DNA from: a virus
Direction: 5' to 3' (one strand)
Length of the DNA: 40,470 nucleotides
UHGV virus genome: UHGV-0078430
In this document: piece by piece, positions 1 through 37,071 of the stretch
How positions within the stretch are numbered: position 1 is the first letter of the stretch
Layout: each line of letters begins with the position of its first letter
Notes under the pieces: model-generated
Databases searched by the model: none
What the model was told of the DNA's origin: nothing
What the model saw: the letters and a program-made list of their open reading frames with translations, nothing else
Made by a program: the position numbers and the translations under genes

Positions 1-49
1 TTATAAGTTCATCTTTAAATGATAATCAATTGCATGGGAGTTTATCACC

Positions 50-1570
50 ATGAGGAGCGTAATTACATACTTGAGATTCTCATCAGCCATACAAGGCGCT
101 GAAGGTGCAGATTCAACCAGACGACAAAATGACCTGTTCAAGCAGTGGCTGAAGAAGAATAGCGATGCTCAAGTAGTAGCGTCTTTCAGTGATGAAGGTC
201 TATCCGGTTACAAAGGTAAGCATCTTACTGGTCAGTTTGGTGACATGTTAGCCCGTATTGAGTCTGGGGAGTTTCCAGAAGGTACGATTTTGCTTGTTGA
301 GAGTATCGACCGTATAGGCCGCTTAGAACACCTTGAAACAGAAGCCTTGATGAATCGCATCTTAGGCAACGGGTTAGAGATTCACACGCTACAAGATGGT
401 CTTATCTACACAAAGGATGCTTTAGCCGATGATTTAGGAATCTCAATCATCCAGCGTGTCAAAGCCTACATAGCGCATCAGGAGAGTAAGCAGAAGTCTT
501 TCCGTGTTAGCGAGAAGTGGAAACAACGTGCAAAACTTGCCCTTGCTGGTGAACAACGTTTAACAAAGATGGTTCCCGGATGGATTGACCCCGATACTCT
601 CAAACTCAATGAACACGCTGAGACTGTAAGACTGATTTTCAAGCTGCTGCTAAGTGGTGAAAGTCTGCATAACATTGCACGTCACCTTCAAAGCAACGGT
701 ATAAAGTCGTTTAGTCGCCGTAAAGATGCTAACGGGTTCAGTGTTCATTCTGTGCGTACTATCTTAAGGTCAGAGACAACGATAGGCACACTACCAGCAT
801 CACAACGTAATGACCGCCCCGCTATACCGAACTACTACGAAGCCGCCATAGACGCTGCAACGTTCAATAAAGCTCAAGAAATCCTCGATAAAAATCGTAA
901 AGGCCGTACACCTGCAAGTGATAACCCATTAACGATTAACATCTTCAAGGGATTATTCCGGTGTCAGTGTGGGGCTAGTGTCCATCCTACCGGAACAAAG
1001 AATAAGTATGCTGGGGTCTACAGGTGCAATAACCACTTAGACGGTCGCTGTGATGTTCCACCGCTGAAGCGTAAACCGTTTGATAAGTGGATGCTTGAAA
1101 ATTTTCTAGGAATGATTGACGTGGGGAATGATGGAGAAGCAGAGGGGAAGATTGCATCTCTACAGCATGAGGTTGAAATTGTCACAACCAGAATCAAGAA
1201 AGCTACCGCCCTACTTCTTGAGATGGATGATATTGATGAACTAAAAATTCAGATTAAGGAACTGAACCAGAGGCGTACAGAGCTACAGACCACGATTGAT
1301 AACATGAGGCGTAAGGCTTCACTCACTGATAAGGAACTACCCCAGCTTAAAGATATTGACCTGACAACTAAAGCGGGTCGTGTCGAGTGTCAGTTGATTT
1401 TGTCCAAACATCTAAAAGGGCTTACATTGGGTAAGGATTCGGTAATTGTAACGCTACAGAACGACACTGAAATCACCATACCTACAAACCCGTTACCGCT
1501 AAATGATGGAACATCAATATTTGAAATTGCTGAAAAAGAGCTACTAGAAATAGACGCTTATCAACTGTAA
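50..1570 (+). CDS. large serine recombinase (integrase/resolvase family)
   Basis: N-terminal YLRFSSAIQ catalytic-serine motif and ESIDRIGR motif typical of resolvase-type catalytic domain; 506 aa with Cys-rich zinc-ribbon-like block (CQCGAS...YRCNNHLDGRC) and coiled-coil C-terminus as in large serine recombinases. Confidence 0.85.
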   Translation: MRSVITYLRFSSAIQGAEGADSTRRQNDLFKQWLKKNSDAQVVASFSDEGLSGYKGKHLTGQFGDMLARIESGEFPEGTILLVESIDRIGRLEHLETEALMNRILGNGLEIHTLQDGLIYTKDALADDLGISIIQRVKAYIAHQESKQKSFRVSEKWKQRAKLALAGEQRLTKMVPGWIDPDTLKLNEHAETVRLIFKLLLSGESLHNIARHLQSNGIKSFSRRKDANGFSVHSVRTILRSETTIGTLPASQRNDRPAIPNYYEAAIDAATFNKAQEILDKNRKGRTPASDNPLTINIFKGLFRCQCGASVHPTGTKNKYAGVYRCNNHLDGRCDVPPLKRKPFDKWMLENFLGMIDVGNDGEAEGKIASLQHEVEIVTTRIKKATALLLEMDDIDELKIQIKELNQRRTELQTTIDNMRRKASLTDKELPQLKDIDLTTKAGRVECQLILSKHLKGLTLGKDSVIVTLQNDTEITIPTNPLPLNDGTSIFEIAEKELLEIDAYQL

Positions 1571-1575
1571 TTTTC

Positions 1576-1598
1576 AGGGGCTATGAAGCCCCTTTTTA
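1576..1598 (+). terminator. putative Rho-independent terminator after recombinase gene
   Basis: 7-bp stem aggggct/agcccct with 4-nt loop followed by ttttta. Confidence 0.45.
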
Positions 1599-1602
1599 TG
1601 TC

Positions 1603-2394
1603 TCAATAAGTGCCCTTCTTGTTCGGATTTACAGAAAACTTCCGTAAAGCATTACCCGACTTAAGCACCTTTGAAGCTTGCTCATTAGCTGAGGCTGTGA
1701 AGGTGCTCTCACCATTTTTAACACTAACGCTCTTAGAGCACGTTACACGGGCTTTTAGCGCTTCATCTGATAACTCACTTGCCGAATAGCTAAAAAGCTC
1801 TTTACAGGTCAGCATAGGGCTTCCAAGACTCGTTGTAGTGTTGCCAGTGTTCTTTTTACTGGTAGCACCACCATCATTCGTAGTCGCGGCTTTTCCAGTT
1901 GCAGCCGAGATATCAGTCTGCCCCACAATAGCTTTAAAGTTAATTTCCTGAAAAGTTAGCTGGATTCTTAGGCCATTTGAAATACCAACATCTTTAGAGG
2001 CTTTAAAGCTCGTGATAATGGAATCATCAATTTTAATTCCGTCTTTACAGATGACCGAAATAATCTGCTTCTGGTCACGCCAGTTTTCCAGAGTGTCGAT
2101 GAAGTTTTCTACCAGCTTATTATCTCTTGAGATAAGGATACTACCGGATTCACCAACCACAACCACACCACTAATAGTAATTGTTCTGGGTGAACGCATT
2201 ACATTATCTGTTACAGTCTGCCCTGATTGCATATTTTGAGTGGTCACCATCATAGGGCTGTCATATTCCATGTTTTCAGTTGCTGATAGTGACAAGAAAT
2301 TATCTGGTTGGCCTTGTAGATGAAAGTAAACGCCATCTTTACCAGTGTAACGAAGCTGATTAGTGTAAATCATTAAATTCTCCTTTGATTTCAA
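1603..2394 (-). CDS. hypothetical protein, possibly distal-tail (Dit)-like by position
   Basis: 263-aa ORF immediately downstream of tape-measure-like gene, Ser/Thr-rich C-terminal half; function inferred only from position. Confidence 0.4.
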
Positions 2395-2455
2395 AGGCTT
2401 AGTGTATTTTAATCATTTTTAACCAAGCCTTTGATATATAAGTGTTTTCTCTGCT

Positions 2456-2519
2456 AAGCGTGTTGTACGTAAATTCTATTTTTCAGTGTGGGTATTAGCT
2501 TTACAGATTTCACGTAGCA
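2456..2519 (-). promoter_or_regulatory. conserved upstream element, copy 1
   Basis: about 64 bp sharing blocks (tgctacgtgaaatct, atacccac, tttacgta, cacgctta on the minus strand) with a second copy at 4601-4663; lies upstream of ORF 1603-2394. Confidence 0.45.
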
Positions 2520-2530
2520 TTCGACTATTA

Positions 2531-4579
2531 TTAATCATCTTCTGGGAATGATGAACTTAATAGCGTAGCTTCTGCATATTGGTCGTAGATATTACTGCTA
2601 AAGGTCATAAAGCTGGTTTCATCTGGTTTAATGGCAACTTCACCACCAAGTGAAACTTTCACAGGCTCCTGAATACGTTTGCTCAAAGCACTAATTTCAT
2701 CTCTCAGGCTTTGGATATCCGTATTCGTTAATGCCGCATCTTGTCTCATGGTGATTAATTCTGGATGCTGGAAGTTAGCAAGATTCATAGCTGCACTACT
2801 AAACCAACCTTTAACATCGTCCATAGTGAACACTGGTTTAAGTCCAGACTCTTTAGCTAGCTCTGGTAATTTAGCTTGTGCTTCCATTCGTTCAGGTGTA
2901 GAAGCTAATCTCTCATAACCTGCATAGATAGCACTACCAGCTAATAACATATTCCCAAGATTAAACCTTGATGGTTTCCCGTTCTTTCTATTCACGTTAT
3001 CCGCTGTAGTATCAGCGACCTGACCTAATCTTGTGATAGCAGTCATAAGCCCGTAAATACTTCTGGTTACACCAACAACTTTATTCACAGCAATAACACC
3101 AGCCAAGACTTTTAAACTATTAATCAAGCCAGAACCTAAAGCATCAACTACTTTCTTTTGTTCATCGGTTAAACCACGGTAAGCTAATGTCACCTCATCA
3201 AAGAATGCTCTTACCCTGTAGCTGATATCAGTCAATGAATCCACACCACTTGACATAGAAGTCATGAGACTACCAAGAGATTCACCAAGACTTTTACCGC
3301 TTCCACCTAAACTATTTAAAAGATTGGTTAAGCTTCTTGTGAAATCTTGAAGACCATTTTCAGAACCTCTGAAGATACTATCAAGCGTGGTATTCCAAGA
3401 GTTTTTCAGGTTCCCTAGTTGTGCCTGTGTACTTTCTGAAATAGCTTTCCAGCCGCCTTTAGCGGTGATTTGTCTATTCAGTTCCTGAGTGACCTTCTGA
3501 AGAGTATCGGCAGATTTTAAAGCCCCCTTCTTCATGGCATCAAATAATTCCTGTTCAGTCTTTCCGGTTGCTTTAGCGAATACCTGAACCATACCAGGAA
3601 CAGCTTCAGCTAATTGCCCCTTAAGCTCTTCAGCCATAATCTGACCCTTACCAGCCATCTGTGATAATGCTGTCAGTGCTCGCTTAATCTCTTCTTCACT
3701 TCGACCCATTAAACGAGAATAGCCAATCATATTTCTAAAAAGTTCTTCAGAACCTTGAATACCCATAGATTCTTTAGCTGAAGCACCAAAACCAGCAAAC
3801 TGTGATTGCAGTTCAGCGATATCTAAACCCGTTGTTTGAGCTAATGACTTTGTGAAATCTTTTACTTGACCTGCATCTTTATCAAATACGAAATCAATAC
3901 TTCTTTCCGATGATGCACGTTGAAGGCCAACTTCCATTACTCGCTGATAAGCGGATAGTACAGCCTGAAAGCTGATAAATGCACCTGCTGCTCTAACCGC
4001 TGCTGAAGACAGGTTATCAAGGCTGCTAGCTGCTCTGTCACTATTAATGCTGGTGGATGTATGACCTCTGGCTTTAGCAATTGCTTCTCTGACTGAAGCG
4101 TTTAACTGAGCTAACTTCTCATTGAATTTTGAAGAATCCATTGACCCGGCTTTAGCAGATAGCCCGTAAAACTGACTCTTAATGTATTTCTCGACAATTG
4201 GGTTAAGGCCTTTTAGCTTGCTCATATTCGCTGAGTAAGCTGCTGTGATTGCTCTGTTTCCGCTAATTCGTGGCTGTCTTGGTTGTTTTGGAGGATTAAC
4301 AGTGTCATTAAATCTGGTGGTAAACTGGAAAGCTTTAGTATTTCTTGCTCTCTGTTCAATCTTGTCAAAGGCCTTATTAAACTTCCTTTCAAGTTGCCCT
4401 AAAGAACTTGTCAAATTACTATCAAGCTGTTTTGTATTAATCCTGAAACCTTTATTTAGGTTCTTTTCAATTCTTTGTGCTGACTGCAAAGCTGCCTTTT
4501 CAACTCTTTGCAGTCCCTTAATAACGTTCTCGCTGAAGCCTAGCTCAACGATAAAACTATCAACTTTAAATTGTGCCAT
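2531..4579 (-). CDS. phage tail tape-measure-like protein
   Basis: 682 aa, coiled-coil N-terminus, central region resembling tape-measure domain (GLDIAELQSQFAGFGASAKESMG ... ALSQMAGKGQIMAEELKGQLAEAVPG ... FAKATGKTEQELFDAMKKG), Gly/Ser-rich segment; assignment from recalled motif pattern. Confidence 0.6.
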   Translation of the reverse strand: MAQFKVDSFIVELGFSENVIKGLQRVEKAALQSAQRIEKNLNKGFRINTKQLDSNLTSSLGQLERKFNKAFDKIEQRARNTKAFQFTTRFNDTVNPPKQPRQPRISGNRAITAAYSANMSKLKGLNPIVEKYIKSQFYGLSAKAGSMDSSKFNEKLAQLNASVREAIAKARGHTSTSINSDRAASSLDNLSSAAVRAAGAFISFQAVLSAYQRVMEVGLQRASSERSIDFVFDKDAGQVKDFTKSLAQTTGLDIAELQSQFAGFGASAKESMGIQGSEELFRNMIGYSRLMGRSEEEIKRALTALSQMAGKGQIMAEELKGQLAEAVPGMVQVFAKATGKTEQELFDAMKKGALKSADTLQKVTQELNRQITAKGGWKAISESTQAQLGNLKNSWNTTLDSIFRGSENGLQDFTRSLTNLLNSLGGSGKSLGESLGSLMTSMSSGVDSLTDISYRVRAFFDEVTLAYRGLTDEQKKVVDALGSGLINSLKVLAGVIAVNKVVGVTRSIYGLMTAITRLGQVADTTADNVNRKNGKPSRFNLGNMLLAGSAIYAGYERLASTPERMEAQAKLPELAKESGLKPVFTMDDVKGWFSSAAMNLANFQHPELITMRQDAALTNTDIQSLRDEISALSKRIQEPVKVSLGGEVAIKPDETSFMTFSSNIYDQYAEATLLSSSFPEDD

Positions 4580-4600
4580 TGTTCATATTTCACCTCTGTT

Positions 4601-4663
4601 AAGCGTGAGCTACGTAAAAAATAATTTTTGGTGGGTATATCTGTTCAGGAGATTTCACGTAGC
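4601..4663 (-). promoter_or_regulatory. conserved upstream element, copy 2
   Basis: second copy of the 2456-2519 element, ends about 20 nt upstream of the tape-measure-like start codon; contains 7-bp inverted repeat gctacgt/acgtagc. Confidence 0.45.
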
Positions 4664-4789
4664 ACACATACAAAAAAGGGAGAAACTACCGAATAATATC
4701 GATAATCTCTCCCCGTGTTATAGATTCGATAGAACCTATCTCATACACCCAACCAATTCTATTAGATTCGATTAGAAGCTAATCTCAAA

Positions 4790-4999
4790 TTAATGCCTGA
4801 CAAGATAATGTAGTTCCGTTTCACCTATAATTTGAGCATCGGAAGGGATACGGTCGATACACCACTTTGGAATCTTGCGTGTTTTTGGTTTGCGTGAGGT
4901 GATAATTTGATGTTTGGTTTTAATTCTTAAGGCTGGCTTAGTTTGTAACTTTAAGTTTTCACAAACAGACCGGATAGTCTCTAAACGTTCTTCAAACAT
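4790..4999 (-). CDS. hypothetical small basic protein
   Basis: 69-aa ORF between two larger minus-strand genes; no recognisable motif. Confidence 0.3.
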   Translation of the reverse strand: MFEERLETIRSVCENLKLQTKPALRIKTKHQIITSRKPKTRKIPKWCIDRIPSDAQIIGETELHYLVRH

Positions 5000-5022
5000 T
5001 AATCACCTCTTTTAATTCATAA

Positions 5023-5733
5023 TTAAAGCACCTTTGAGTACTTCGTTGAAATCTTCGTTAACTGCTCAATATCGGCTTGCATAGCAATCTTCTTCTGCGT
5101 TTCATATCCACTAACAAGCTCTTTCATGCTATCAAGTTCTTTTCTAAGTTTTTGCTTTAACTTATCCAGTTTACCGGAATAATGCTTAGTCAAATTAGCT
5201 TCAGCTAACTGAAGAATCTCTTCGTCTGTCTTATCAGTCATCAGGATAAATTGACCAGAACCCCTTAATGCTTGTCTGACATCAATTAACCGGAACCCTT
5301 CAGGGATACTTTGAAGAACTTTAGGAACGTCTTCAATCGCTGTACCAAAACCATCATTAAAGTTTCCTTCATAATAGATAAACGGGTTTGACTTAATCTC
5401 GTAAGCAATATCATATTCTGAAGGTTTCGAGGTTTCTTCGAAGTTCTTAACAGCATCGTAAGCAATATCAAGTCGAATACGCTGTTCTTTTAGCCGTGGG
5501 TAATATTCACGCTCAAGCTCAAATAGTGCTTCAGTTTTGCAAACATCAGGCATCTCCTGAGGTTCAGGATACACAAAGATGGTTGTTTTTGGTGACATCT
5601 TTAGCGATTGCTCAAGCTTAATTCTTTCATCGTGTTCTTTACGCTGGATAGTGATAGCTGGATGTTCAGTCTGTGGTGACCAGTCCCCGAAGCTATCAAT
5701 CTTTCTGCCGTTAATAAATAAATCATTTGTCAT
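5023..5733 (-). CDS. hypothetical protein
   Basis: 236-aa ORF with Lys/Glu-rich coiled-coil-like C-terminus; no recognisable catalytic motif. Confidence 0.5.
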   Translation of the reverse strand: MTNDLFINGRKIDSFGDWSPQTEHPAITIQRKEHDERIKLEQSLKMSPKTTIFVYPEPQEMPDVCKTEALFELEREYYPRLKEQRIRLDIAYDAVKNFEETSKPSEYDIAYEIKSNPFIYYEGNFNDGFGTAIEDVPKVLQSIPEGFRLIDVRQALRGSGQFILMTDKTDEEILQLAEANLTKHYSGKLDKLKQKLRKELDSMKELVSGYETQKKIAMQADIEQLTKISTKYSKVL

Positions 5734-5940
5734 TATAACTTCCTCTAAGTGTGGTTATTTCTTAATAGAGCACCTTCAACGCCAATACACTTAGAAGATG
5801 ACTTAACGATTTATTAAAGATGCTCTATTAAGAAAAGCCCTAAACATAGGTTCATCCTTATCTGTGAAGGGCTTTGGAGTTTGCTTATAACGTTAACGGA
5901 GTTTCAGGAAAAACTTTCTTTAAAAGCTCTGTTTAAAAAC

Positions 5941-5973
5941 TCTTAAAGAAACGCCCTAACTCATGATTAGGGC
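5941..5973 (-). terminator. putative terminator between upstream 4-gene operon and downstream genes
   Basis: stem gccctaa/ttagggc with 7-nt loop; on the minus strand followed by gtttcttt. Confidence 0.35.
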
Positions 5974-6304
5974 AAAGCTGTAAGGGTTCAATAATGAATG
6001 ATTAAGCACTTTTTGATATATAGCCTATCTAGTGGGCTAAATAGGCCATGTAGCGAAAAGCATTGCACCTTTCAGAATGTTCGGTATAGAACATACCTCA
6101 CCAACTCAGAATATCCATCCATCCATCGGATTATTGAAAGAAAAATAAGAGAGAATTACTCTCCCATAATTAAAATTATGTCATGCTTAAGGTTATTTGT
6201 CAACAGCTTTTTAACAGATTGGTAACATTAATTCTTATTTACCGTGTTACCTACCCAGCAACCAACAAATAAACCCAAAGCTGTCCAAGCAATTATTAAG
6301 CCCA

Positions 6305-6649
6305 TTAATGCACCACCTTCGAATCCGTCACCAAAATATTGTCAGCGTACAAAATTGCTATAGCTGCCTTGAGATATCCTTCAGGGCTAACGCTGTATTT
6401 GTTCGTTTGCTCGATAACCAATCTTTTCATGTTGCTGTCTTTAATTGGTAGCATCATTCGAGGCTCGTTAAACTCCACCGACTGAATAAAGTCAGAGATG
6501 CTTTCCGCATTATCAGCCATTAACTCTAACAACTTATCAAAGTCAATGCTAACACCTACATCAGTGAAAGCCTGAATCATCATAGCGGTGTCGTTATCAA
6601 CCATAATTTGCATTGGGTAATTGTTCATTTTTAAATTCCTATAAAACAC
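6305..6649 (-). CDS. hypothetical protein
   Basis: 114-aa ORF, last gene of a co-directional 4-gene cluster; true start may be internal Met (MNNYPMQ). Confidence 0.45.
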   Translation of the reverse strand: MFYRNLKMNNYPMQIMVDNDTAMMIQAFTDVGVSIDFDKLLELMADNAESISDFIQSVEFNEPRMMLPIKDSNMKRLVIEQTNKYSVSPEGYLKAAIAILYADNILVTDSKVVH

Positions 6650-6765
6650 ATCTTAAATCTGCCAAAATAGCCATTCTGAGGCCAGTAACCATGCGGGTTA
6701 CAGAGGGAGTGAGACACCTTAGTAATAGGGTAGCTCATCTTTGAGTCTCACTCATTCTTACAGGC

Positions 6766-7152
6766 TTACACAGACGCTTTAATCTTGTAGTATTGACTGC
6801 GTGATAAACCGTATTTCTCAGAAATATAACTTTGTGATTGTCCTTTGGTGATTGCATCAATGATTAAATCTTTATCGTATCTTTTACCGTTGGCTTTGTG
6901 CTTGTCGCCACTTTTAATAGAGTTGAAATTCTCAATTAATTTAATGGCGTCTTTAAGGTCGTCTTCGTAAGCATAATCAAAACCCCTGATAAACTCGAAA
7001 TCACCATTATCTTTTTGTGCTTCAGTCCAGATATCAAATCTTGAGGCTAATTGCTGGTGGGTAAACTTGGGCTTATTGGTTTGTGTTACGTCTTTCCAGA
7101 CTTTACCGTCAAATCTTACCAAATGGTCACGATGTTTATAAAAGTCATACAT
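6766..7152 (-). CDS. hypothetical protein with C-terminal helix-turn-helix
   Basis: 128 aa; C-terminus ISEKYGLSRSQYYKIK resembles HTH of resolvase/terminase-small-subunit/transposase-type DNA-binding domains. Confidence 0.5.
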   Translation of the reverse strand: MYDFYKHRDHLVRFDGKVWKDVTQTNKPKFTHQQLASRFDIWTEAQKDNGDFEFIRGFDYAYEDDLKDAIKLIENFNSIKSGDKHKANGKRYDKDLIIDAITKGQSQSYISEKYGLSRSQYYKIKASV

Positions 7153-7430
7153 TAAACCTCCATCGCTAATTTGTGAATTTTAATGCTTAGTAACCTTGCT
7201 AAATCCAGTCCAAAAGCATTTAAAGATTTCAGATTATCAAGGTCGGCTTGCTCAATCCTGATATGGTGTCTTGCAGCCTCTAAGCGGCTATTAAGCAAAT
7301 CTTGTTCGTTAATATCACGGTTAATTGCAAGCTTCATCACTGCTGAGTGTGGCAGACCTGTAATGTTTTTGATTCGGTTCAGTTCATCAAAGGCTGTCTT
7401 TGTAACTCTGGTTAAAGTGTGTTTGCTCAT
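7152..7430 (-). CDS. hypothetical protein
   Basis: 92-aa ORF; start overlaps stop region of upstream gene and stop abuts next gene (translational coupling). Confidence 0.45.
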   Translation of the reverse strand: MSKHTLTRVTKTAFDELNRIKNITGLPHSAVMKLAINRDINEQDLLNSRLEAARHHIRIEQADLDNLKSLNAFGLDLARLLSIKIHKLAMEV

Positions 7431-7431
7431 T

Positions 7432-7989
7432 TTAAAATTCCTCTGTAACTAAATACGGGTCAAACTCGAAATCTGGTTGCTCGTTTTCCATTGGCTCAAT
7501 ATTTCCAACGGCAATATGATGCTCAACAACACCAATTAACTTTGCGCACATTACAGCAAGCAAAGCGCAATATTTATCGCTTGGTAATTCATGGCTAAGT
7601 CTGGTTGCTTGACGCTGAAGATGATTTGTCACGGTGGCTGAGTTAATTTCATCAAGACTTCGCAGTAAATAAAAAACCTTCTGGTTGTATTTCTGGTGAC
7701 CCTCGCTTCTGCAAAATCCAATAAAAATATCATCAAGCTTGCTCGGTAGTTGCGCGTAGCTGTCAAAGCTAGCCAGATAATTCTTGATGCTGTTCTTTGT
7801 TGTTTTGCGTGTTGGCATGTAACGGTTCCTCGGTGTAATTGCCCGAATTACTTCGTCAATGCCTTTGCGTTCTTTCTTGGTAAACTTGGGTAATTCGTGG
7901 CTGGTGGGGGAGTTTGTGTAAGCGTAGGAGTTGTGCTTGTTGCGTTCTCTTGATGCCTGAAGCATCGCTCTAAATTCTGCGTCTCTCAT
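7432..7989 (-). CDS. hypothetical protein
   Basis: 185-aa ORF, first gene of the 4-gene cluster; divergent promoter region upstream (7990-8112). Confidence 0.5.
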   Translation of the reverse strand: MRDAEFRAMLQASRERNKHNSYAYTNSPTSHELPKFTKKERKGIDEVIRAITPRNRYMPTRKTTKNSIKNYLASFDSYAQLPSKLDDIFIGFCRSEGHQKYNQKVFYLLRSLDEINSATVTNHLQRQATRLSHELPSDKYCALLAVMCAKLIGVVEHHIAVGNIEPMENEQPDFEFDPYLVTEEF

Positions 7990-8076
7990 TCATATTCTGA
8001 CCCTCATAAGATGTTATTATTCTGTTAACTTATATAGACAATACTAGCATTTTCAAAGACTAATGTCAAGCATTTT

Positions 8077-8106
8077 TTAACATTTTATTAACATCTGTGG
8101 TATAAT
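8077..8106 (+). promoter_or_regulatory. putative sigma70 promoter with extended -10
   Basis: TGgTATAAT at 8098-8106 with ttaaca -35-like hexamer about 17-18 bp upstream. Confidence 0.4.
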
Positions 8107-8286
8107 GGTTCTATGGGGAGAGTAAAATATAAAGGCGTGGCTATGATTTGGTCACATGGTTATTGCATTGCACACAGACCTCTTCAATCGCTCTGTAACG
8201 AGTTAAACAGCCTCTTAAGGTCAACTATAAGGTCAGGTACTTTTTTGTGTCAGAATGCGATTGAGAGCGTCTTACAAGGAAAACTA

Positions 8287-8463
8287 ATGGTAAATCTCCC
8301 TCCTGAGCTGGGGTCACCTGATGTGTGGGCTGGTGGAGGTGTGGGTCTGTTCGCAGGTCTGTTACTTCGCTACGTCCTCGTCAGGGTGCTTGTTGTCTTT
8401 AGACTGTTCGGTCGTACATGGACGCTTGACCTTAAGGATAACAACCACACAGACCCCCGTTAA
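8287..8463 (+). CDS. small hydrophobic (single-pass membrane-like) protein
   Basis: 58-aa ORF (MVNLPPELGSPDVWAGGGVGLFAGLLLRYVLVRVLVVF...) preceded by AAGGA RBS; sits in a locally GC-rich patch inside the AT-rich island, downstream of a strong promoter; both overlapping frames are open so coding status is uncertain. Confidence 0.3.
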   Translation: MVNLPPELGSPDVWAGGGVGLFAGLLLRYVLVRVLVVFRLFGRTWTLDLKDNNHTDPR

Positions 8464-8476
8464 ACTCCCTTCAAAA

Positions 8477-8515
8477 CCCCCTGTACGAGATGGTATAGGG
8501 GTATCTTTAGCATTT
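8477..8515 (+). terminator. weak terminator-like hairpin
   Basis: cccct/agggg stem with 14-nt loop followed by T-rich tatctttagcatttt. Confidence 0.25.
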
Positions 8516-8583
8516 TGTGCTATCTATTAAAAAACAGCTTGACATAACCGGAAAGCTGTATCTATCAAGTATTCACCTCTCTG

Positions 8584-8755
8584 ACAGTAATTGCTAAAAG
8601 TTCTTATTTTTCAATAAGTTGTAATTAGCCATATATAGAGAACTGACAAGCCTCTTCACAGTTAACTCTGAAACCTTAACAGTAAATTCTAAAAGTTCTT
8701 ATTTTTCAATGAGTTGTAATTAGCCAATATAAAGGACTGACAAGACCCTTCACAG
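8584..8755. repeat. tandem direct repeat, 2 copies of about 78 bp at 95-bp period
   Basis: 8584-8661 and 8679-8755 align along their length (acagtaa.t.ctaaaagttcttatttttcaat.agttgtaattagcca...gactgacaag.c.cttcacag). Confidence 0.7.
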
Positions 8756-8783
8756 AGAACTTCCTGGACTCACTAAGATACAA

Positions 8784-8990
8784 GGCGATAACCCCAGAAA
8801 GGGAGAGCCACCTTCTTAACCGACTTCTTAAACAATCTTTACAGACCCCGTTCACCAGTCTCAATATTTTTATTTCTCGCTCTTCGTTTGTTGCTCGTTT
8901 CTATTATTGAGGGGGTTTGAAAAACCTCTGTAAAATAACCCTTCCAGTAAAAAGCGAATAACCCCAGACAGGGGAAATCGCCTCTTTAAC
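8784..8990. repeat. two copies of about 36-bp element
   Basis: gcgataaccccagaaagggagagccaccttcttaac (8784-8820) and gcgaataaccccagacaggggaaatcgcctctttaac (8954-8990). Confidence 0.4.
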
Positions 8991-9021
8991 ATTCTCGTAA
9001 TCAGTGCTCTATATGAGAATT

Positions 9022-9684
9022 TTAGCCCAACCTTTGAGCAATCCTGTATGACGTGCTCAGAGGCATTCTGAGAGCATCTGCAATGCACTTAATGGGTTTG
9101 CCTTGCCTGTATAGTTTTATGAAGCTGTCGAGCGTCTCAGGTGGGTAAATGGTGGGTCTTCCTCTTAAGCCTCCTCTGTTAATGATGGTTAACGGTAATA
9201 GCGTGTCAGCACAGCAAACCATCTGCGTAATTTCATGCTTACGTGGTTCTTTTTTAAAAACAACGACTGCACTTGGAAACGGTGAACGAATAACAAGCCT
9301 GTTATGGCCTGCTGGTGGAAGGTATTTAACTGCACGATGAAGAATACGGATTTCATGGCAAAGCGGGTTTGTGAAGATGTGCTTAAGCCAGTATATGGTT
9401 TGGGGTCGGTACGGTATCAGGAATACCGCTAAATCTGCTTCAGACGCTTTTACGAGGAATGTTTTAGTGTCGCTGTATGGTGGGTTACAGAATACCTTTT
9501 CACCAACCCATGACTGATTGTGGATATCATCGGTGAACCGTGGCAACAATGCGTCATGCTCAGTTGCAGCACCATCCAGACTGAAACTAAACTCACGGTG
9601 TAAGTTCTTGAATAATAAAAATGGAGTTCTCCAGTAATCAGAACCCCCATGATGTTTCCCGATTAAAATACACTCAATTGACAT
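9022..9684 (-). CDS. phage-type DNA N6-adenine methyltransferase (Dam family) with C-terminal HTH
   Basis: FCNPPYSD catalytic motif, DGAATEHDALLPRF upstream motif typical of phage Dam-like MTases; C-terminal HTH-like tail (LSTSYRIAQRLG). Confidence 0.8.
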   Translation of the reverse strand: MSIECILIGKHHGGSDYWRTPFLLFKNLHREFSFSLDGAATEHDALLPRFTDDIHNQSWVGEKVFCNPPYSDTKTFLVKASEADLAVFLIPYRPQTIYWLKHIFTNPLCHEIRILHRAVKYLPPAGHNRLVIRSPFPSAVVVFKKEPRKHEITQMVCCADTLLPLTIINRGGLRGRPTIYPPETLDSFIKLYRQGKPIKCIADALRMPLSTSYRIAQRLG

Positions 9685-10001
9685 AAGAAATAAAAATTTT
9701 TATTGCAATCACTCTTGACAAGGTTTACTCTCTTTTAAGAGATACTTAACAGGCTTTCTAAACGGATATCCTTTCTGGGATATCTATCTCTTATCTTAAA
9801 AGTCTTTATAGATACTTTAAAGATATCTGTATTAAATCTGTACAGTAACTTTTCAGACTCTGAAAATTTTTATAAAATCGTAATAGCCCCTCTTCAAATT
9901 CCCCTTCTAAAAATCTTCGAAAATATCTATCACAGGTCTATACCTGCTAAGTACCCGCCACACCAGCTATGTGACCCCCTTTGCAGAATTTTAAAATATC
10001 T

Positions 10002-10766
10002 ATGAGGTTTATTCGATAGAGGTTGGTACAAGCCCAACTAACCGAATCAACTATTGACTTTCTTCATAGTATCTGTTAACTCCACCTCAAGAAACCTTCA
10101 TCACACTTCAAAGCATCTATCAAGAAGATTTAACCTATCAATAGCTGTAACATTTTATAGTTCTGTGAAGTCCTATCCAGTTTTCTCTGTAACAGACACA
10201 AACTTCTGTGACCTTATGTATCAATGACTTACAAGACATGCTCTCAAGGTGCTGTATAGCCTCTTATCAGCCAATACACAAAACCCTTATAAATCAGTAC
10301 TGATACATATACAGTGTGTTTTTAACATAATAGCTGTTTTACGCACTAATCGTGTTCTACATGAAATCTGTATAGATATTAAGGTGTCTGTAAGTGATTT
10401 TTTAAGAGGAACTACGAAGGAACTATGAGGTTGATTCCTAGAACTAACCGAATCAACTATAACCATCACCTCCTAACTTTCACATAGCTGATTGTTATCT
10501 CTTGCAACTGTAACGTATGGTGACCAAACATCTATATATCGTTATATAGCCCTGTATATAGCACTTTTCTAGGAGTCTGGAGAGGGACGACTAACACGAT
10601 ACAGTTTACCCTGAAAAGAGACTTCACAGATTCTTTATATATTTCAATAAGTTAGGGTAAAAAGAGACTATGCTGATACTGCATAGAATCTGTGTAAAAC
10701 TGCTTAGATACTTGGGAAAATGCCTTTAAATTGCATAGTCATAGGGGTTGGAACAAGCCCAACTAC
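10002..10766. repeat. family of three related 25-55-bp elements in an ORF-poor region
   Basis: 10002-10056 atgaggtttattcgatagaggttggtacaagcccaactaaccgaatcaactat; 10424-10460 atgaggttgattcctagaactaaccgaatcaactat; 10741-10766 ataggggttggaacaagcccaacta; core gttgg-N7-ccaac dyad. Confidence 0.5.
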
Positions 10767-11054
10767 ACCTGATATTGTCCTGTAATTAACAGGTCTCTTA
10801 GAAAACCGAATAGACTTCATTCAAGGGTCATTGAAGTCATAATCATTTCAGTAGAAAAACCAGGTCTCGATTTTAAATGCAAATAGCAATCATATTCAAT
10901 AAGGCAAGACGATCAGGATCAGTGAAAATGTCATTTTTGGCGTAATTACCCTTACTTTATGCATGGCCTTAACAAAGACATCATCTTTCCGTTGCAGATC
11001 TTCGCCCTTTCAAATAACGTACTTTACAACTTTCCCGAACAAGGAGTTGTGCCC

Positions 11055-11351
11055 GTGTTGTATGTTATTTACGCTCAAGACAAAGCTGATAGCCTCGAAA
11101 AACGCCTTTCCGTTCGTCCGGCACATTTAGCACGTTTACAGTTACTGCATGATGAAGGTCGTTTGTTGACAGCTGGTCCAATGCCAGCGGTAGACAGTAA
11201 CGATCCAGGGGCTGCGGGATTTACTGGCTCAACCGTTATTGCTGAATTTGAATCGCTGGAAGCAGCTCAGGCCTGGGCCGATGCTGACCCGTACGTAGCG
11301 GCAGGAGTCTATGAACACGTTTCAGTGAAACCATTTAAGAAAGTGTTCTAA
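11055..11351 (+). CDS. yciI: YciI-like protein
   Basis: 98-aa product from GTG start with AAGGAG RBS 8 nt upstream; sequence (RPAHLARLQ...GRLLTAGP...ADPYV..GVYE) matches my recollection of enterobacterial YciI family; the longer ORF from 10959 is probably not the real start. Confidence 0.75.
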
Positions 11352-11469: not shown

Positions 11470-12018
11470 TCAGCTAGCTGGAAACTTTTTATACAGAGTT
11501 GAGAGCCCTACTCCATACGTTTTTGATACGCTTTGTCGTGATTCACCGGTTGCCATCCGCTCCCCCATTTCCCGCCATTGCTCATCCGTGAACTTAGGCC
11601 TGCGACCACCAACTCGCCCTTTTGCCCTGGCTACGGCCAGCCCTGCTAAGGTACGTTCGCTATTAAGATCAGATTCATATTGTGCTGCGGAAAGGATGTT
11701 ACGAAAGTTATAGCGGCCGCTGGCTGTTTTGAGATCCACGCCATCGGTAATACTGCGGAAGTTGATACCCTTTTCCTGTAACTGCTGGAACATCAACAGC
11801 GCATGCAGAACGTTGCGGCCTATCCTGTCCAGCTTCCAGACCACCAGTTCATCCCCCGGCTGCATAGTGGCGATCAGCCGTTTTAGAACCGGCCGATTCG
11901 ATTTCCTCCCGCTGGCATGCTCTTCAAAAATTTTCTCACAACCCGCTGACTTGAGCGCCGTTAGTTGCAATTCAGTGTCCTGGTGGTTTGTTGATACTCG
12001 GGCATAACCGTAAATCAT
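11470..12018 (-). CDS. site-specific DNA invertase (Pin/Gin/Hin/Cin family small serine recombinase)
   Basis: MIYGYARVSTNHQ catalytic-Ser N-terminus, VVWKLDRIGR motif, C-terminal HTH (VGLSTLYKK); start trimmed to internal ATG at 12018 with AGGAG RBS 7 nt upstream. Confidence 0.9.
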   Translation of the reverse strand: MIYGYARVSTNHQDTELQLTALKSAGCEKIFEEHASGRKSNRPVLKRLIATMQPGDELVVWKLDRIGRNVLHALLMFQQLQEKGINFRSITDGVDLKTASGRYNFRNILSAAQYESDLNSERTLAGLAVARAKGRVGGRRPKFTDEQWREMGERMATGESRQSVSKTYGVGLSTLYKKFPAS

Positions 12019-12021
12019 GGG

Positions 12022-12048
12022 ATTTCTCCTGTTATGAAAACAGGAGAA
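12022..12048. other. 27-bp inverted repeat overlapping the invertase RBS
   Basis: minus strand tttctcctgtt-ttcat-aacaggagaaa, 11-bp arms with 5-bp spacer immediately upstream of the invertase start codon. Confidence 0.3.
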
Positions 12049-12077
12049 ACGGCGAAGCATCACCAGATTTTTGATGG

Positions 12078-12103
12078 TTATAAAAAAGGTTGGTTTGGGA
12101 AAC
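12078..12103. other. candidate hix/gix-like recombination site
   Basis: ttataaaaaaggttggtttgggaaac resembles my recollection of 26-bp hix/gix sites (TTATCAAAAACC..GGTTT..); only one copy found. Confidence 0.3.
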
Positions 12104-12152
12104 ACGAAGTATGAATGTAGTGCACCACATAAATTTCGAATCTTTGGCAAGC

Positions 12153-12183
12153 AAAACTGGATCACTAATAGTGATCCAGTTTT
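12153..12183. other. perfect 31-bp palindrome
   Basis: aaaactggatcact-aat-agtgatccagtttt, 14-bp arms; downstream of tail-fibre stop; terminator or protein-binding site. Confidence 0.4.
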
Positions 12184-12251
12184 AAATACCAATCGAAGGT
12201 TAAATGGTGGGCTTGTTGAGCCTAGAGCCTGTACATAAATTTTTTATTTTA

Positions 12252-14687
12252 CTATTCCATCTCGTCCATTCTCTTCATGACCATTGCGATATTCCGTCGT
12301 TGAAGCGCCGCCTCCATCACCAGAGCCTCCTCATATCGGATGCCGTATTTCTCACCGACAACGTAAGATTCAGCTATCAGCTTTTCATGCGCTGGTTCGG
12401 TCATGTTCCACAGCTCTGGTGAAACCTGTTTCCCATCGTCATCATAAACCGCTGGCACGACTTCATACACAGCAGGGACTGATTCATAAACAGCGGGAAT
12501 GGTTTCTTCTGGGTCGTAGCAAAAGAAAGCAAAACTATGAGGATCAAGGCCGTGGCGTTCAAAAGCCTCCTTGGCACGCTGAGCAATAATTCCAAAGTGC
12601 CAACGAGCACCGTCATCACCCTTGGCCTCTATCCTGTCGATAAACTGGAACTGCACGAAATCTACTTCCGCCCAGGCGTCCAGGATAATATCGGCATACG
12701 AGTCTTCCATCAGCCTGGGATCGGATACCGCCTCTGGCTCGAGGGACCCACGTGCCAGCATGACTGGACGTGATTTTTGTAGCTCATCGGATGTAACGGT
12801 GAACGCCGTCTGAGTGAATCCGCCAGCCCATATGGATGAGCTTGTCCCGACGCTATACGTGTTAGTCGCAACCGGCTGAACATTCCCGGTCACTCGAAGA
12901 GGCGAAAATACATCACTGACCGTAGCCGCAAATCGGGCTAACTCAGTACCCGGCGAATCCTCTGTAGAACCAGAATAGAGACGAACGCCGTTTTTACTGA
13001 ATATCGTGGTCGCAGATAAATCGTTAGCACCCTTTATCACGCCAATTCCAGCCTGCCAGTCCGCAGAACTGGGGCCTGTGACATCAGTGATGCTGTGCAG
13101 AGTTCCGCCCATCCGCCCGAACGGATCTGTAACGTTATCAAGATGCACCCCTCTTATCGTTATTTTACCAGTACTGCCGCCACCAGATACAAACCCTACA
13201 GGGCAATCCTTAAAAGTTACTCCACTTAACTTCGCGTATTTCCTGTTGATGATTGCGGCTCTGCTAACGTCTCTGCATACCAGCCCATTAATTACCGTAT
13301 CGTCCCCATTACCATACTCTCGGCCAGTCGATGTGCCACTGGTTGAGGCGGTGACAGATAAGCCATCTTCCGCGTTGGCTATCTGAATGTTAGAACCCCG
13401 GCAGTGCCGCTCTTCTATCCAGACGCCGTTTTTAAGTCGTCCGCCTTCATCACCGATAGCAACGATATTATTAAAATTAACAAATGGTGCCTTAATGTGC
13501 AGTCCGATTAACGTTGTGTAATCAGCACCAAACCGGTTTTGAACGACCGTTATGTCAGATACGTTTGCCCACGCACTCGATCCTCTTCCTTCTAAACTAC
13601 CAATCGGGCCTTGCTTGATACGAACACCCGCCCCAGGACAGCCAACGTCTCCAAAGTCAGAAACGTAGACATTAGATACTTTTGGCGCAATAGACATAAC
13701 ATCAACACCAGCCCAGGGGTTATTTGGCTCATCAAGCTGGCCGAAGTTAAATACGAAAATGTTATTAAGATGGAATGCGCGGCTGACAGATCCGTTATCT
13801 TTAATATCAATCCCATCAGCGCCGGTATTTTCTGACCAGTAACCATCAATAACGCACCCTTTGTAGCCGCCGTTCTGCAAACCCAGCCCATAGTGGGAGC
13901 AATTTTTAACCTTTAGGTTGTTGATGCTGAGACCCTCAATCCCCGCGCCGACCACCCCCTCTGTTTGTCTTACATAAGACGCAGACGTGAAATCTCCATG
14001 ATAGTTACCGTCAATGCAGATGTTGTGCAGACCTACACCATGAACTTTCGTAATGCCGTTTTGCAGCGGAGCCTTGGACCACTGGATAACGCCGTATGCC
14101 GAGTTGGTTGCATAAGCCTGAATGGTGGTTGAATTCCACCCCTGCCCACACAGGATTACGTTGTCGTAAGGAATGCGAAGAGCTGCAACGCGGATGGTCG
14201 CGGTCGAAGAGCTGAAATCAGACTCATCCATATGAACCTGATAAAGGCTTTTGGTGAAAACAATTCTTCCACCGCCAGCAGCGCTTAGTTCTGCTGCTTT
14301 TTGCATAATTTTATCGGCGTTAGATTTAGCGACAGTGATCGATACCAATCCACTTACAACACCAAATGATTCGGCTGTAACTTGAATACCTTCTAATCCA
14401 AGGTTTGTGGTAATCGCTGTCGCCAGCTTTGCCACCAGTCCATCAACGTCACCATCATCGAGCGCGTCCAGTTCGGCGTTCGCGATAAACTGCCCCAGTA
14501 CAGCCGCCATCGTCGACGGTTGGCGCAGCGCTTTACTGACCTGTGCGCTGGATGCTTTACCCGAGGAGAATCCTTTCTTCAGTGCGGTTAGCGTCTCCCA
14601 TTCCTCCTGCGAGGTAACATTTGCATTAGCATCTGTCGCAAACGCTTTAAAATCATTAGTTCCAGCCATTAAAGTAATCTCCCCCAT
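12252..14687 (-). CDS. tail fibre / tailspike protein with beta-helix-like central domain
   Basis: 811 aa, Gly/Asn/Val-rich repetitive central region typical of parallel beta-helix tailspikes, C-terminal tandem PAVYE repeats; last gene of tail module next to invertase. Confidence 0.7.
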   Translation of the reverse strand: MGEITLMAGTNDFKAFATDANANVTSQEEWETLTALKKGFSSGKASSAQVSKALRQPSTMAAVLGQFIANAELDALDDGDVDGLVAKLATAITTNLGLEGIQVTAESFGVVSGLVSITVAKSNADKIMQKAAELSAAGGGRIVFTKSLYQVHMDESDFSSSTATIRVAALRIPYDNVILCGQGWNSTTIQAYATNSAYGVIQWSKAPLQNGITKVHGVGLHNICIDGNYHGDFTSASYVRQTEGVVGAGIEGLSINNLKVKNCSHYGLGLQNGGYKGCVIDGYWSENTGADGIDIKDNGSVSRAFHLNNIFVFNFGQLDEPNNPWAGVDVMSIAPKVSNVYVSDFGDVGCPGAGVRIKQGPIGSLEGRGSSAWANVSDITVVQNRFGADYTTLIGLHIKAPFVNFNNIVAIGDEGGRLKNGVWIEERHCRGSNIQIANAEDGLSVTASTSGTSTGREYGNGDDTVINGLVCRDVSRAAIINRKYAKLSGVTFKDCPVGFVSGGGSTGKITIRGVHLDNVTDPFGRMGGTLHSITDVTGPSSADWQAGIGVIKGANDLSATTIFSKNGVRLYSGSTEDSPGTELARFAATVSDVFSPLRVTGNVQPVATNTYSVGTSSSIWAGGFTQTAFTVTSDELQKSRPVMLARGSLEPEAVSDPRLMEDSYADIILDAWAEVDFVQFQFIDRIEAKGDDGARWHFGIIAQRAKEAFERHGLDPHSFAFFCYDPEETIPAVYESVPAVYEVVPAVYDDDGKQVSPELWNMTEPAHEKLIAESYVVGEKYGIRYEEALVMEAALQRRNIAMVMKRMDEME

Positions 14688-36996: not shown

Positions 36997-37071
36997 TGGC
37001 GGGACAGGAAGGATTCGAACCTTCGACCAATCGGTTAACAGCCGATCTCACAACCTCTGTGCTTCTGACCC
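36997..37071 (-). tRNA. tRNA-Asn-like (anticodon GUU), possibly phage-borne or degenerate
   Basis: manual cloverleaf: acceptor GGGTCAG/CTGTCCC (one T-T mismatch), D-arm with GG, anticodon stem ATCGG/CCGAT with loop CTGTTAA, T-arm GAAGG-TTCGAAT-CCTTC, encoded CCA. Confidence 0.45.

Follow-up and report, generated by a model that had tools for sequence, protein, structure and literature searches.

A probable three-site DNA inversion module built around a single tailspike gene in the viral genome UHGV-0078430

The viral genome UHGV-0078430, analyzed here over a stretch of 40,470 nucleotides (the window), encodes a small serine DNA invertase directly after a large tailspike gene. The invertase probably belongs to a three-site inversion module, in which the invertible DNA is the 3′ part of the tailspike gene itself. 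The module is most likely a one-sided, three-site variant of the Mu G and P1 C systems that acts as an ON/OFF switch of the spike. In the sense of the spike gene, it is laid out as a constant N-terminal anchor, a distal crossover site (D), segment A, a second site (M), mini-segment B with its hairpin, a site proximal to the invertase (P), and the invertase gene. By comparison of sequences among related loci, the sites, the replacement of a cassette between them, and inversions of both predicted kinds could be demonstrated. The elements of the module are as follows.

11470..12018, minus strand: serine DNA invertase gene, 182 amino acids, MIYGYARVST..., catalytic Ser9, C-terminal helix-turn-helix ending ...GLSTLYKKFPAS
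12022..12050, minus strand: hairpin with a 12-bp stem and a 5-nt loop over the invertase Shine-Dalgarno sequence (AGGAGA, 12024-12029; ATG at 12016-12018)
12074..12238, plus strand: reading frame that would follow the constant N-terminus once P and D have recombined, ending ...NLGLGNTKYECSAPHKFRIFGKQNWITNSDPVLNTNRRLNGGLVEPRACT and a stop codon
12078..12103, plus strand: crossover site P, invertase-proximal, TTATAAAAAAGG TT GGTTTGGGAAAC
12092..12197, no strand assigned: mini-segment B, spanning about 106 bp from the P core to the M core, with 100% identity in 14 related loci
12153..12183, both strands: perfect 31-bp palindrome in B, terminator-like (fold z −8.4 and −6.7)
12184..12209, plus strand: crossover quasi-site M, AAATACCAATCG AA GGTTAAATGGTG, 42 bp past the spike stop codon
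12210..14387, minus strand: segment A, encoding the receptor-binding/enzymatic body of the spike (residues ~99-811), plus 42 bp of 3′ flank
12252..14687, minus strand: tailspike gene, 811 amino acids from the ATG at 14687
12546-12695, minus strand: S74 intramolecular chaperone domain of the spike (Pfam Peptidase_S74, 6.1e-10)
14388..14413, plus strand: crossover site D, distal, within the spike gene, ACCTTCTAATCC AA GGTTTGTGGTAA; its minus strand encodes I-T-T-N-L-G-L-E-G
14414-14687, minus strand: constant N-terminal anchor; the N-terminal ~94 residues of the spike are common to more than 1,000 short fiber proteins of the prophage family

The window was scored with a half-site matrix built from two sources only, the Mu gix sites, read from the Mu sequence itself, and the outer half-sites of two P2-like prophages. 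P ranked first among 40,445 window positions (16.3 bits), a score that was equaled or exceeded by the top score in one of 20 shuffles. In position and sequence, it is the proximal site of the prophage of E. coli G3/10, except for 2 bases of the inner half; the same 26 bp had been singled out in a first-pass annotation of the window, and they also form the proximal site of sister prophages. D, which ranked fourth, falls at the spike codons for ...TTNLGL and EG, and its outer half and core are identical to those of the G3/10 distal site at the homologous codons. M was located by the exact breakpoints at which B is inverted between two pairs of related loci (L005 and L024 versus L015 and L016). 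From these sequences, M looks like a quasi-site, both halves of which are poor in the common orientation, while each derived site has one good half. The core of P (TT) is inverted relative to those of M and D (AA on the same strand). P and D constitute the pair of inverted 26-bp sites with matching cores that is characteristic of the Din family, the inner half of D being weak, and together with M they provide the three or more crossover sites and more than two arrangements of a multiple-inversion system.

The first-pass annotation had seen only one site and no obvious invertible segment. Both statements have to be revised, since M and D are each inverted relative to P, and the C-terminal 717 spike codons lie between P and D and are inverted in P2-like prophages. 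The DNA between the crossover sites comprises the C-terminal 88% of the tailspike gene and the 106-bp B. The search of the whole window for partner sites, which had been proposed at that stage, ranked the inverted D inside the spike gene fourth. Beyond the module, it yielded no convincing site with a TT/AA core anywhere in the 40-kb window, the next best sites having GG or TC cores. Distant partners in the neighboring element (1-10820) were considered and rejected, as no site with a matching core was found there.

The boundaries of the cassette coincide with these sites. Homology ends at 12100 in comparisons of the window with phi80-type phages and with the prophages of 69 complete E. coli genomes, and is regained, for the prophage family, at 14395-14400; none of 5,426 complete E. 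coli genomes contained the interior, 12101-14394, at ≥85% identity. In G3/10, the corresponding 1.87-kb segment, with two fiber C-termini and two assembly genes, lies between TTATAAAAAAGG TT GGTTTGGGAGAA and TTCTCCCAAACC AA GGTTTGTGGTAA. The window retains both outer halves and cores of this type of segment, at 12078-12091 and 14400-14413, and the two-fiber, two-chaperone segment usual in the family has been replaced by the spike cassette. Spike residues 95-811 were found to be 100% identical in P2-type fibers of 989, 1000, and 1017 amino acids, and in an 859-amino-acid fiber with a fourth kind of N-terminus, all joined between (N/Y)LGL and EGIQ. Relatives of the spike body with 55-88% identity start at the same module boundary, without this motif.

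At the DNA level, a 2.3-kb unit (spike body, stop codon, 42 bp, M, and B) is identical in 15 loci on five backbones. In all 15, the cassette ends exactly at the two core dinucleotides, and the outer half-sites vary with the backbone. Overall, at least five phage backbones besides that of the window carry the cassette at 100% identity. Only one or two bases are shared beyond the core at the P end, so that ordinary homologous recombination is unlikely, and the location of every junction at the core dinucleotides points to exchange of the cassette by invertases, at a pair of inverted sites. The simplest reading of the spread of the cassette would be that the crossover sites themselves were the points of exchange. 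An exact-pattern scan of metagenome and genome collections with a cassette-interior pattern gave no match, and in the viral collection this pattern and the palindrome matched only the window's own contig; both results are uninformative on frequency. Three loci on two P2-like backbones (L013, L014, and L020) carry the cassette without an invertase gene. A relic outer half-site lies just outside the P core in these loci, at 6164-6200 in L013 and L014 and after 7203 in L020 (CCTTTGAAAGAA, CGATTAAGAGAA). Beyond the relic, L013 and L014 have a GC-rich inverted repeat with a T-run, followed by the sheath gene; the next called gene in L020 is gpU.

Comparison of the cassette-bearing loci also revealed the inversions. 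On one P2-like backbone, which carries an intact 193-amino-acid invertase, the orientation of B in L005 and L024 is opposite to that in L015 and L016, and the breakpoints coincide exactly with the P and M cores. On another backbone, the whole 2.3-kb A plus B is inverted in L017 and L019, which recombined at the same D inner half as is present in the window. The junction between spike body and invertase reads TTCCGGAAAACG TT GGATTAGAAGGT in these loci, and that between fiber N-terminus and tail reads GTTTCCCAAACC AA GGTTTTGGAGAA, giving a 251-amino-acid product with a 48-amino-acid tail. The invertase gene of L017 and L019 (4174-4711) is frameshifted near codon 100, so that the inverted arrangement is locked, with the spike disconnected. 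A 322-amino-acid fusion predicted for an inverted L005 backbone was present as the exact sequence in the protein collection (P0227). Among relatives, the parental arrangement, B flipped, and A plus B flipped were all observed. In addition, the collar half-cassette of G3/10 is opposite in orientation to that of PSJ-22, LR-33, and TOK-001, and all four prophages carry the window's exact invertase.

Truncated spike proteins (659, 684, and 481 amino acids) were considered as signs of inversion and rejected as such, only L017 and L019 being truly inverted. L018 is uninverted, with a junction sequence equal to that of the window, and its 659-amino-acid protein is therefore merely a shorter gene call; L020 and L024 are likewise uninverted despite short gene calls. 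A protein search with a 50-residue tail peptide returned no candidates, though the peptide occurs in called genes, and so is not evidence of absence. Two further observations concern other prophages. A 121-amino-acid protein (P0132), from a 274-kb contig of another E. coli genome, has the constant N-terminus followed, after NLGL, by an unrelated 27-residue tail; other one-sided or OFF-state cassettes may thus exist in the window's prophage family. A segment 97% identical to that of G3/10 lies on opposite strands, at ~1.47 Mb, in strain EC12 and in strains EC15 and EC18, which look related; this difference probably reflects a live inversion at another prophage.

The invertase itself has the features of a Din-family enzyme, an N-terminal catalytic domain with the YxRVS(T) serine and a C-terminal helix-turn-helix (Pfam Resolvase, 3.6e-39; HTH_7, 1.5e-9). 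It aligns over its full length with Gin at 51% identity, with conservation of Ser9, the DRxGR motif, and the recognition-helix motif STLYKK, which is also common to P2-like enzymes. The top solved structure is that of Gin (PDB 3uj3, E 1.4e-56), and identity to the L005 invertase is 52%. The gene is nucleotide-identical to that of E. coli G3/10, and its product is identical to phi80 PinL over 172 residues; PinL ends 10 residues earlier, without the ...STLYKKFPAS of the DNA-binding helix. On this comparison, the window copy is the full-length form of the pinL gene. A 240-amino-acid entry in the list of open reading frames is an upstream TTG extension of the same gene. The RNA fold of 12005-12075, which contains the hairpin over the ribosome-binding site, has a free energy of −23.1 kcal/mol (z −3.8), and the inverted repeat is named IR3 in the phi80 annotation. 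The hairpin would throttle translation, probably keeping invertase levels low. The recombinational enhancer of Din-family systems lies toward the 5′ end of the invertase gene and comprises two Fis sites separated by ~48 bp. In a crude scan, gin and the L005 invertase gene each showed a pair of Fis-like G...C 15-mers, at nt 22 and nt 71 (49 bp spacing).

The gap between the invertase and the spike stop codon is 233 bp (12019-12251), and contains no chaperone gene and no second fiber C-terminus. The first-pass annotation, which described a small serine invertase immediately after the fiber gene, an inverted repeat over its ribosome-binding site, a gap of ~230 bp devoid of an alternative C-terminus or chaperone, and a perfect 31-bp palindrome, was accurate on each of these points. 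Its suggestion of a degenerate or minimal switch survives in its second half only. A mini-segment of ~106 bp does lie in the gap and occurs in both orientations in relatives, but the invertase is full length and identical to copies in sister prophages with ordinary two-fiber segments, and degeneracy is not indicated. A promoter and terminator scan of the gap gave no more matches than shuffled sequence. Origin of B as a remnant of a second fiber gene is unsupported, as other cassettes beside the same invertase share only the inner half-site with B. The frame within 12074-12238 encodes the same 48-residue tail that is fused to P2-type N-termini in L019 and in P0227; the tail has no Pfam match. 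The post-inversion frame (12092-12238, plus strand) is open through B in both orientations, giving 48-residue tails with the same TAA end, which may be accidental or may reflect coding, past or present.

The tailspike gene more likely starts at the ATG at 14669, which overlaps the stop codon of the DUF2612 gene as TAATG and yields 805 amino acids, the form held by NCBI (WP_202132010.1). The C-terminal 30% of the spike is ~41% identical to K5-lyase-type tailspikes, and the protein is probably a depolymerase. Its built-in S74 chaperone explains the absence of a separate assembly gene. In two proteins of the collection (P0097 and P0105), the TAG stop codon of the spike is replaced by a Cys codon (...EMEC), and 17 further residues (CKIKNLCTGSRLNKPTI) end inside the outer half of M.

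The proposed mechanism follows that of the Din family, for which the participation of Fis and of the enhancer described above is established. Invertase dimers would bind P and D, or P and M, together with host Fis and the enhancer, and a Gin/Hin-type reaction would follow, with 2-bp staggered cuts at the TT/AA cores and a 180-degree rotation of subunits. Recombination between P and M would flip B alone, a hairpin element, probably without consequence. Recombination between P and D would flip A plus B, leaving the spike body without its start codon and anchor. The recombinant junctions predicted for the window are TTATAAAAAAGGTTGGATTAGAAGGT and GTTTCCCAAACCAAGGTTTGTGGTAA with A plus B flipped, and TTATAAAAAAGGTTCGATTGGTATTT and GTTTCCCAAACCAAGGTTAAATGGTG with B flipped. 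Two alternative fiber C-termini, each with a chaperone, were not found in the module, which has one C-terminus and, in the other frame, the 48-residue tail. Since P x D inversion leaves the anchor with only this tail, the switch would be one between ON and OFF rather than a choice between two fibers.

Several observations weigh against an active switch in the window's own prophage. The loci of the window's family (the window, L003, L018, and L021-L023; six loci, representing 11 or more contigs) are without exception spike-ON and agree in the orientation of B, and the five inverted-state proteins predicted for this family were missing from a collection of 15 billion proteins. The invertases of the inverted relatives are only ~52-55% identical to that of the window. 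M is unrecognizable from sequence alone (rank 621, both halves scoring negative). The inner half of D scores 1.7 bits, and shuffled sequence gives top scores in a range that includes the total for D, so that support for D comes from its position, core, and orientation. The first Fis-like element is retained (GTATCAACAAACCAC) and the second is not obviously conserved, in a crude scan for a motif that is too degenerate for a firm assignment. An OFF state giving spike-less virions has no obvious benefit, and the frameshift and locked OFF state of L017 and L019 look like decay rather than regulation.

Much of this evidence would also be expected of a recombination scar with a passenger invertase, in which the sites are left over from entry of the cassette, inversion is absent, too rare, or disfavored for a role, and the gene persists with the attachment module. 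The uniform orientation of the six loci, the missing inverted products, the weak inner half of D, the very weak M, the apparent lack of a conserved distal Fis-like element, and the burial of the invertase ribosome-binding site in a hairpin all fit such a scar, as does the occurrence of the invertase-plus-att block in lambdoid phages, where the phi80 copy is truncated beside fiber pseudogene fragments. We nevertheless regard the scar as rather unlikely: the gene is intact, identical copies of it lie next to ordinary segments whose orientation varies between strains, and the same inner half-sites have recombined in P2-like backbones. Moreover, on the L005 backbone one inverted product (P0227, from one contig) was found versus ~38 contigs with uninverted fibers, and at such a ratio, none in ~11 contigs of the window's family is unremarkable and no argument for inactivity. 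The conserved STLYKK motif of the recognition helix also speaks for activity. The window's invertase would probably still perform inversions in its own prophage, and the OFF state may have a biological role.

Two other readings place the relevant inversion elsewhere. If only the 106-bp B worked as a switch, with P x M recombination re-orienting the hairpin to tune read-through or invertase expression and D inert, the strong hairpin, its location just upstream of the invertase, and the flipping of B on a backbone with an intact invertase (two loci versus two) would be accounted for. This reading appears improbable, however. The hairpin is a perfect palindrome and is barely altered by flipping, no credible promoter was seen in B on the invertase-directed strand, the window's family contains no B variant, M resembles a chance quasi-site with both halves negative, and the large P x D inversion is documented as well. 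Action in trans, on sites elsewhere in the window or in other host prophages, would draw on the known interchangeability of Gin, Cin, Pin, and Hin, and E. coli strains often carry several such segments, with thousands of related cassettes matched. It is very improbable as the explanation, as no window site outside the module combines a good score with a TT/AA core, and activity in trans would supplement the local module, not replace it. The three-site module with the 3′ part of the tailspike gene as its invertible DNA is thus retained as the probable reading.

A broader proposal can be offered only tentatively, and is doubtful as a whole. In this proposal, the crossover sites serve as portable joints for recombinase-mediated cassette exchange, by which one unchanged tailspike has come to be shared by an Omnitron-like myovirus and several P2-like phages; the resulting one-sided cassette works as a programmed ON/OFF switch, leaving a fraction of virions without spikes; and the ~106-bp B is the shortest invertible segment, near the DNA-looping limit for two sites. 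We know of no shorter invertible segment for the small serine invertase family.

The module lies at the left end of a prophage, the junction of which with the chromosome was mapped from the phi80 annotation.

11330..11346, no strand assigned: phi80-type attachment (att) core at the 3′ terminus of yciI (plus strand, 11055-11351), marking the prophage/chromosome junction

The att core, invertase, and proximal site, which form one block next to yciI, indicate that the prophage runs rightward from ~11333. It has the structural genes of a temperate myovirus, and over 90% of the structural region it matches Citrobacter phage Omnitron at 96.7% identity. Of the complete E. coli genomes, 69 carry this invertase together with the proximal site, and the locus adjoins yciI in those examined. 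A tRNA-Asn(GTT) gene lies within the prophage at 36997-37071, beside the lysis region. On the other side of yciI, window positions 1-10820 hold a low-GC (37-44%), phage-like element, located 5′ of yciI where K-12-like strains have tonB. Its products include, besides a Dit-like protein and a tape-measure protein, a large serine recombinase of 506 amino acids (50-1570) and a fusion of a Dam methylase with a resolvase-type helix-turn-helix (9022-9684). Coverage of at least 80% of this element was reached in only seven of the 5,426 complete E. coli genomes; in L022, it is present at 100% identity.

Inversion of tail-fiber genes has so far been treated as a choice between two host ranges. In the window, the same machinery brackets a single large tailspike, and the outcome would be the presence or absence of a receptor-binding protein. 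The identical cassette in unrelated phages, cut at the 2-bp cores, is unusually clean evidence for joints at which receptor-binding modules are traded. These findings bear on the prediction of host range from prophage sequences and on phage engineering by cassette exchange, and also on annotation, as inverted states give "partial" or truncated fiber proteins in databases. The literature searched contained no account of a one-sided ON/OFF cassette for a spike, nor of identical cassettes in different backbones with boundaries at the cores.

Compared with the Mu G/Gin, P1 C/Cin, and e14 P/Pin systems, the module is similar in that a small serine invertase adjoins the segment, the sites are 26-bp inverted sites of two 12-bp half-sites and a 2-bp core, and the distal site lies in the fiber gene at the boundary between constant N-terminus and variable C-terminus. 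The segment of 2.3 kb is in the usual range for this type. The window differs from these systems in having one C-terminus, so that inversion would exchange the spike for a 48-residue stub rather than fiber A for fiber B. It further differs in the lack of a tail-fiber assembly gene, the spike having its S74 chaperone, in its third site, and in its invertase, which is only about half identical to Gin. The core is TT/AA, unlike the TC/GA of gix; TT/AA is the core of hix.

The sister prophages at yciI (E. coli G3/10, PSJ-22, LR-33, and TOK-001, and Citrobacter phage Omnitron) have the same invertase (WP_000639140.1), and share the outer half-sites, the constant fiber N-terminus, the DUF2612 and baseplate J neighbors, and the integration site of the window. 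Their segment of 1.8-1.9 kb holds two short fiber C-termini (gp53-like and collar) and two assembly genes, in place of the 2.3-kb spike cassette. In phi80, HK225, mEp237, and mEpX1, which are lambdoid siphoviruses and not myoviruses like the phage of the window, the att core, IHF site, invertase, ribosome-binding-site repeat, and proximal site are 94.7-99.7% identical up to 12100. In phi80, PinL is cut short at 172 amino acids, versus 182 in the window, and is followed by fiber pseudogene fragments, which mark phi80 pinL as a truly degenerate system. The window does not share this orphan state, as it has a full-length invertase, the outer half and core of the partner site, and an intact spike reading frame.

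Precedents for more than two sites come from the Min system of plasmid p15B and from the quasi-sites of Cin (cixQ). Sandmeier, Iida, and Arber reportedly described more than two crossover sites in one fiber region, recombination at secondary sites with a poor match but the same core dinucleotide, and the service of crossover sites as joints for the exchange of fiber modules between phages. Min of p15B has six sites and the window three, one of the window's segments is only ~106 bp, and its payload is a single large enzymatic spike. The tail-fiber hotspot of P2 often encodes a DNA invertase, with adjacent genes inverted (preprint, 10.1101/2024.10.15.618418), and six loci with the identical cassette (L005, L015-L017, L019, and L024) are P2 hotspot loci of this kind. 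The phage of the window is not P2-like, having DUF2612 and baseplate J neighbors and an Omnitron-like late region. Programmed fiber inversions beside DUF2612 genes and P2 gpI genes are known from bulk surveys (PMC9881135).

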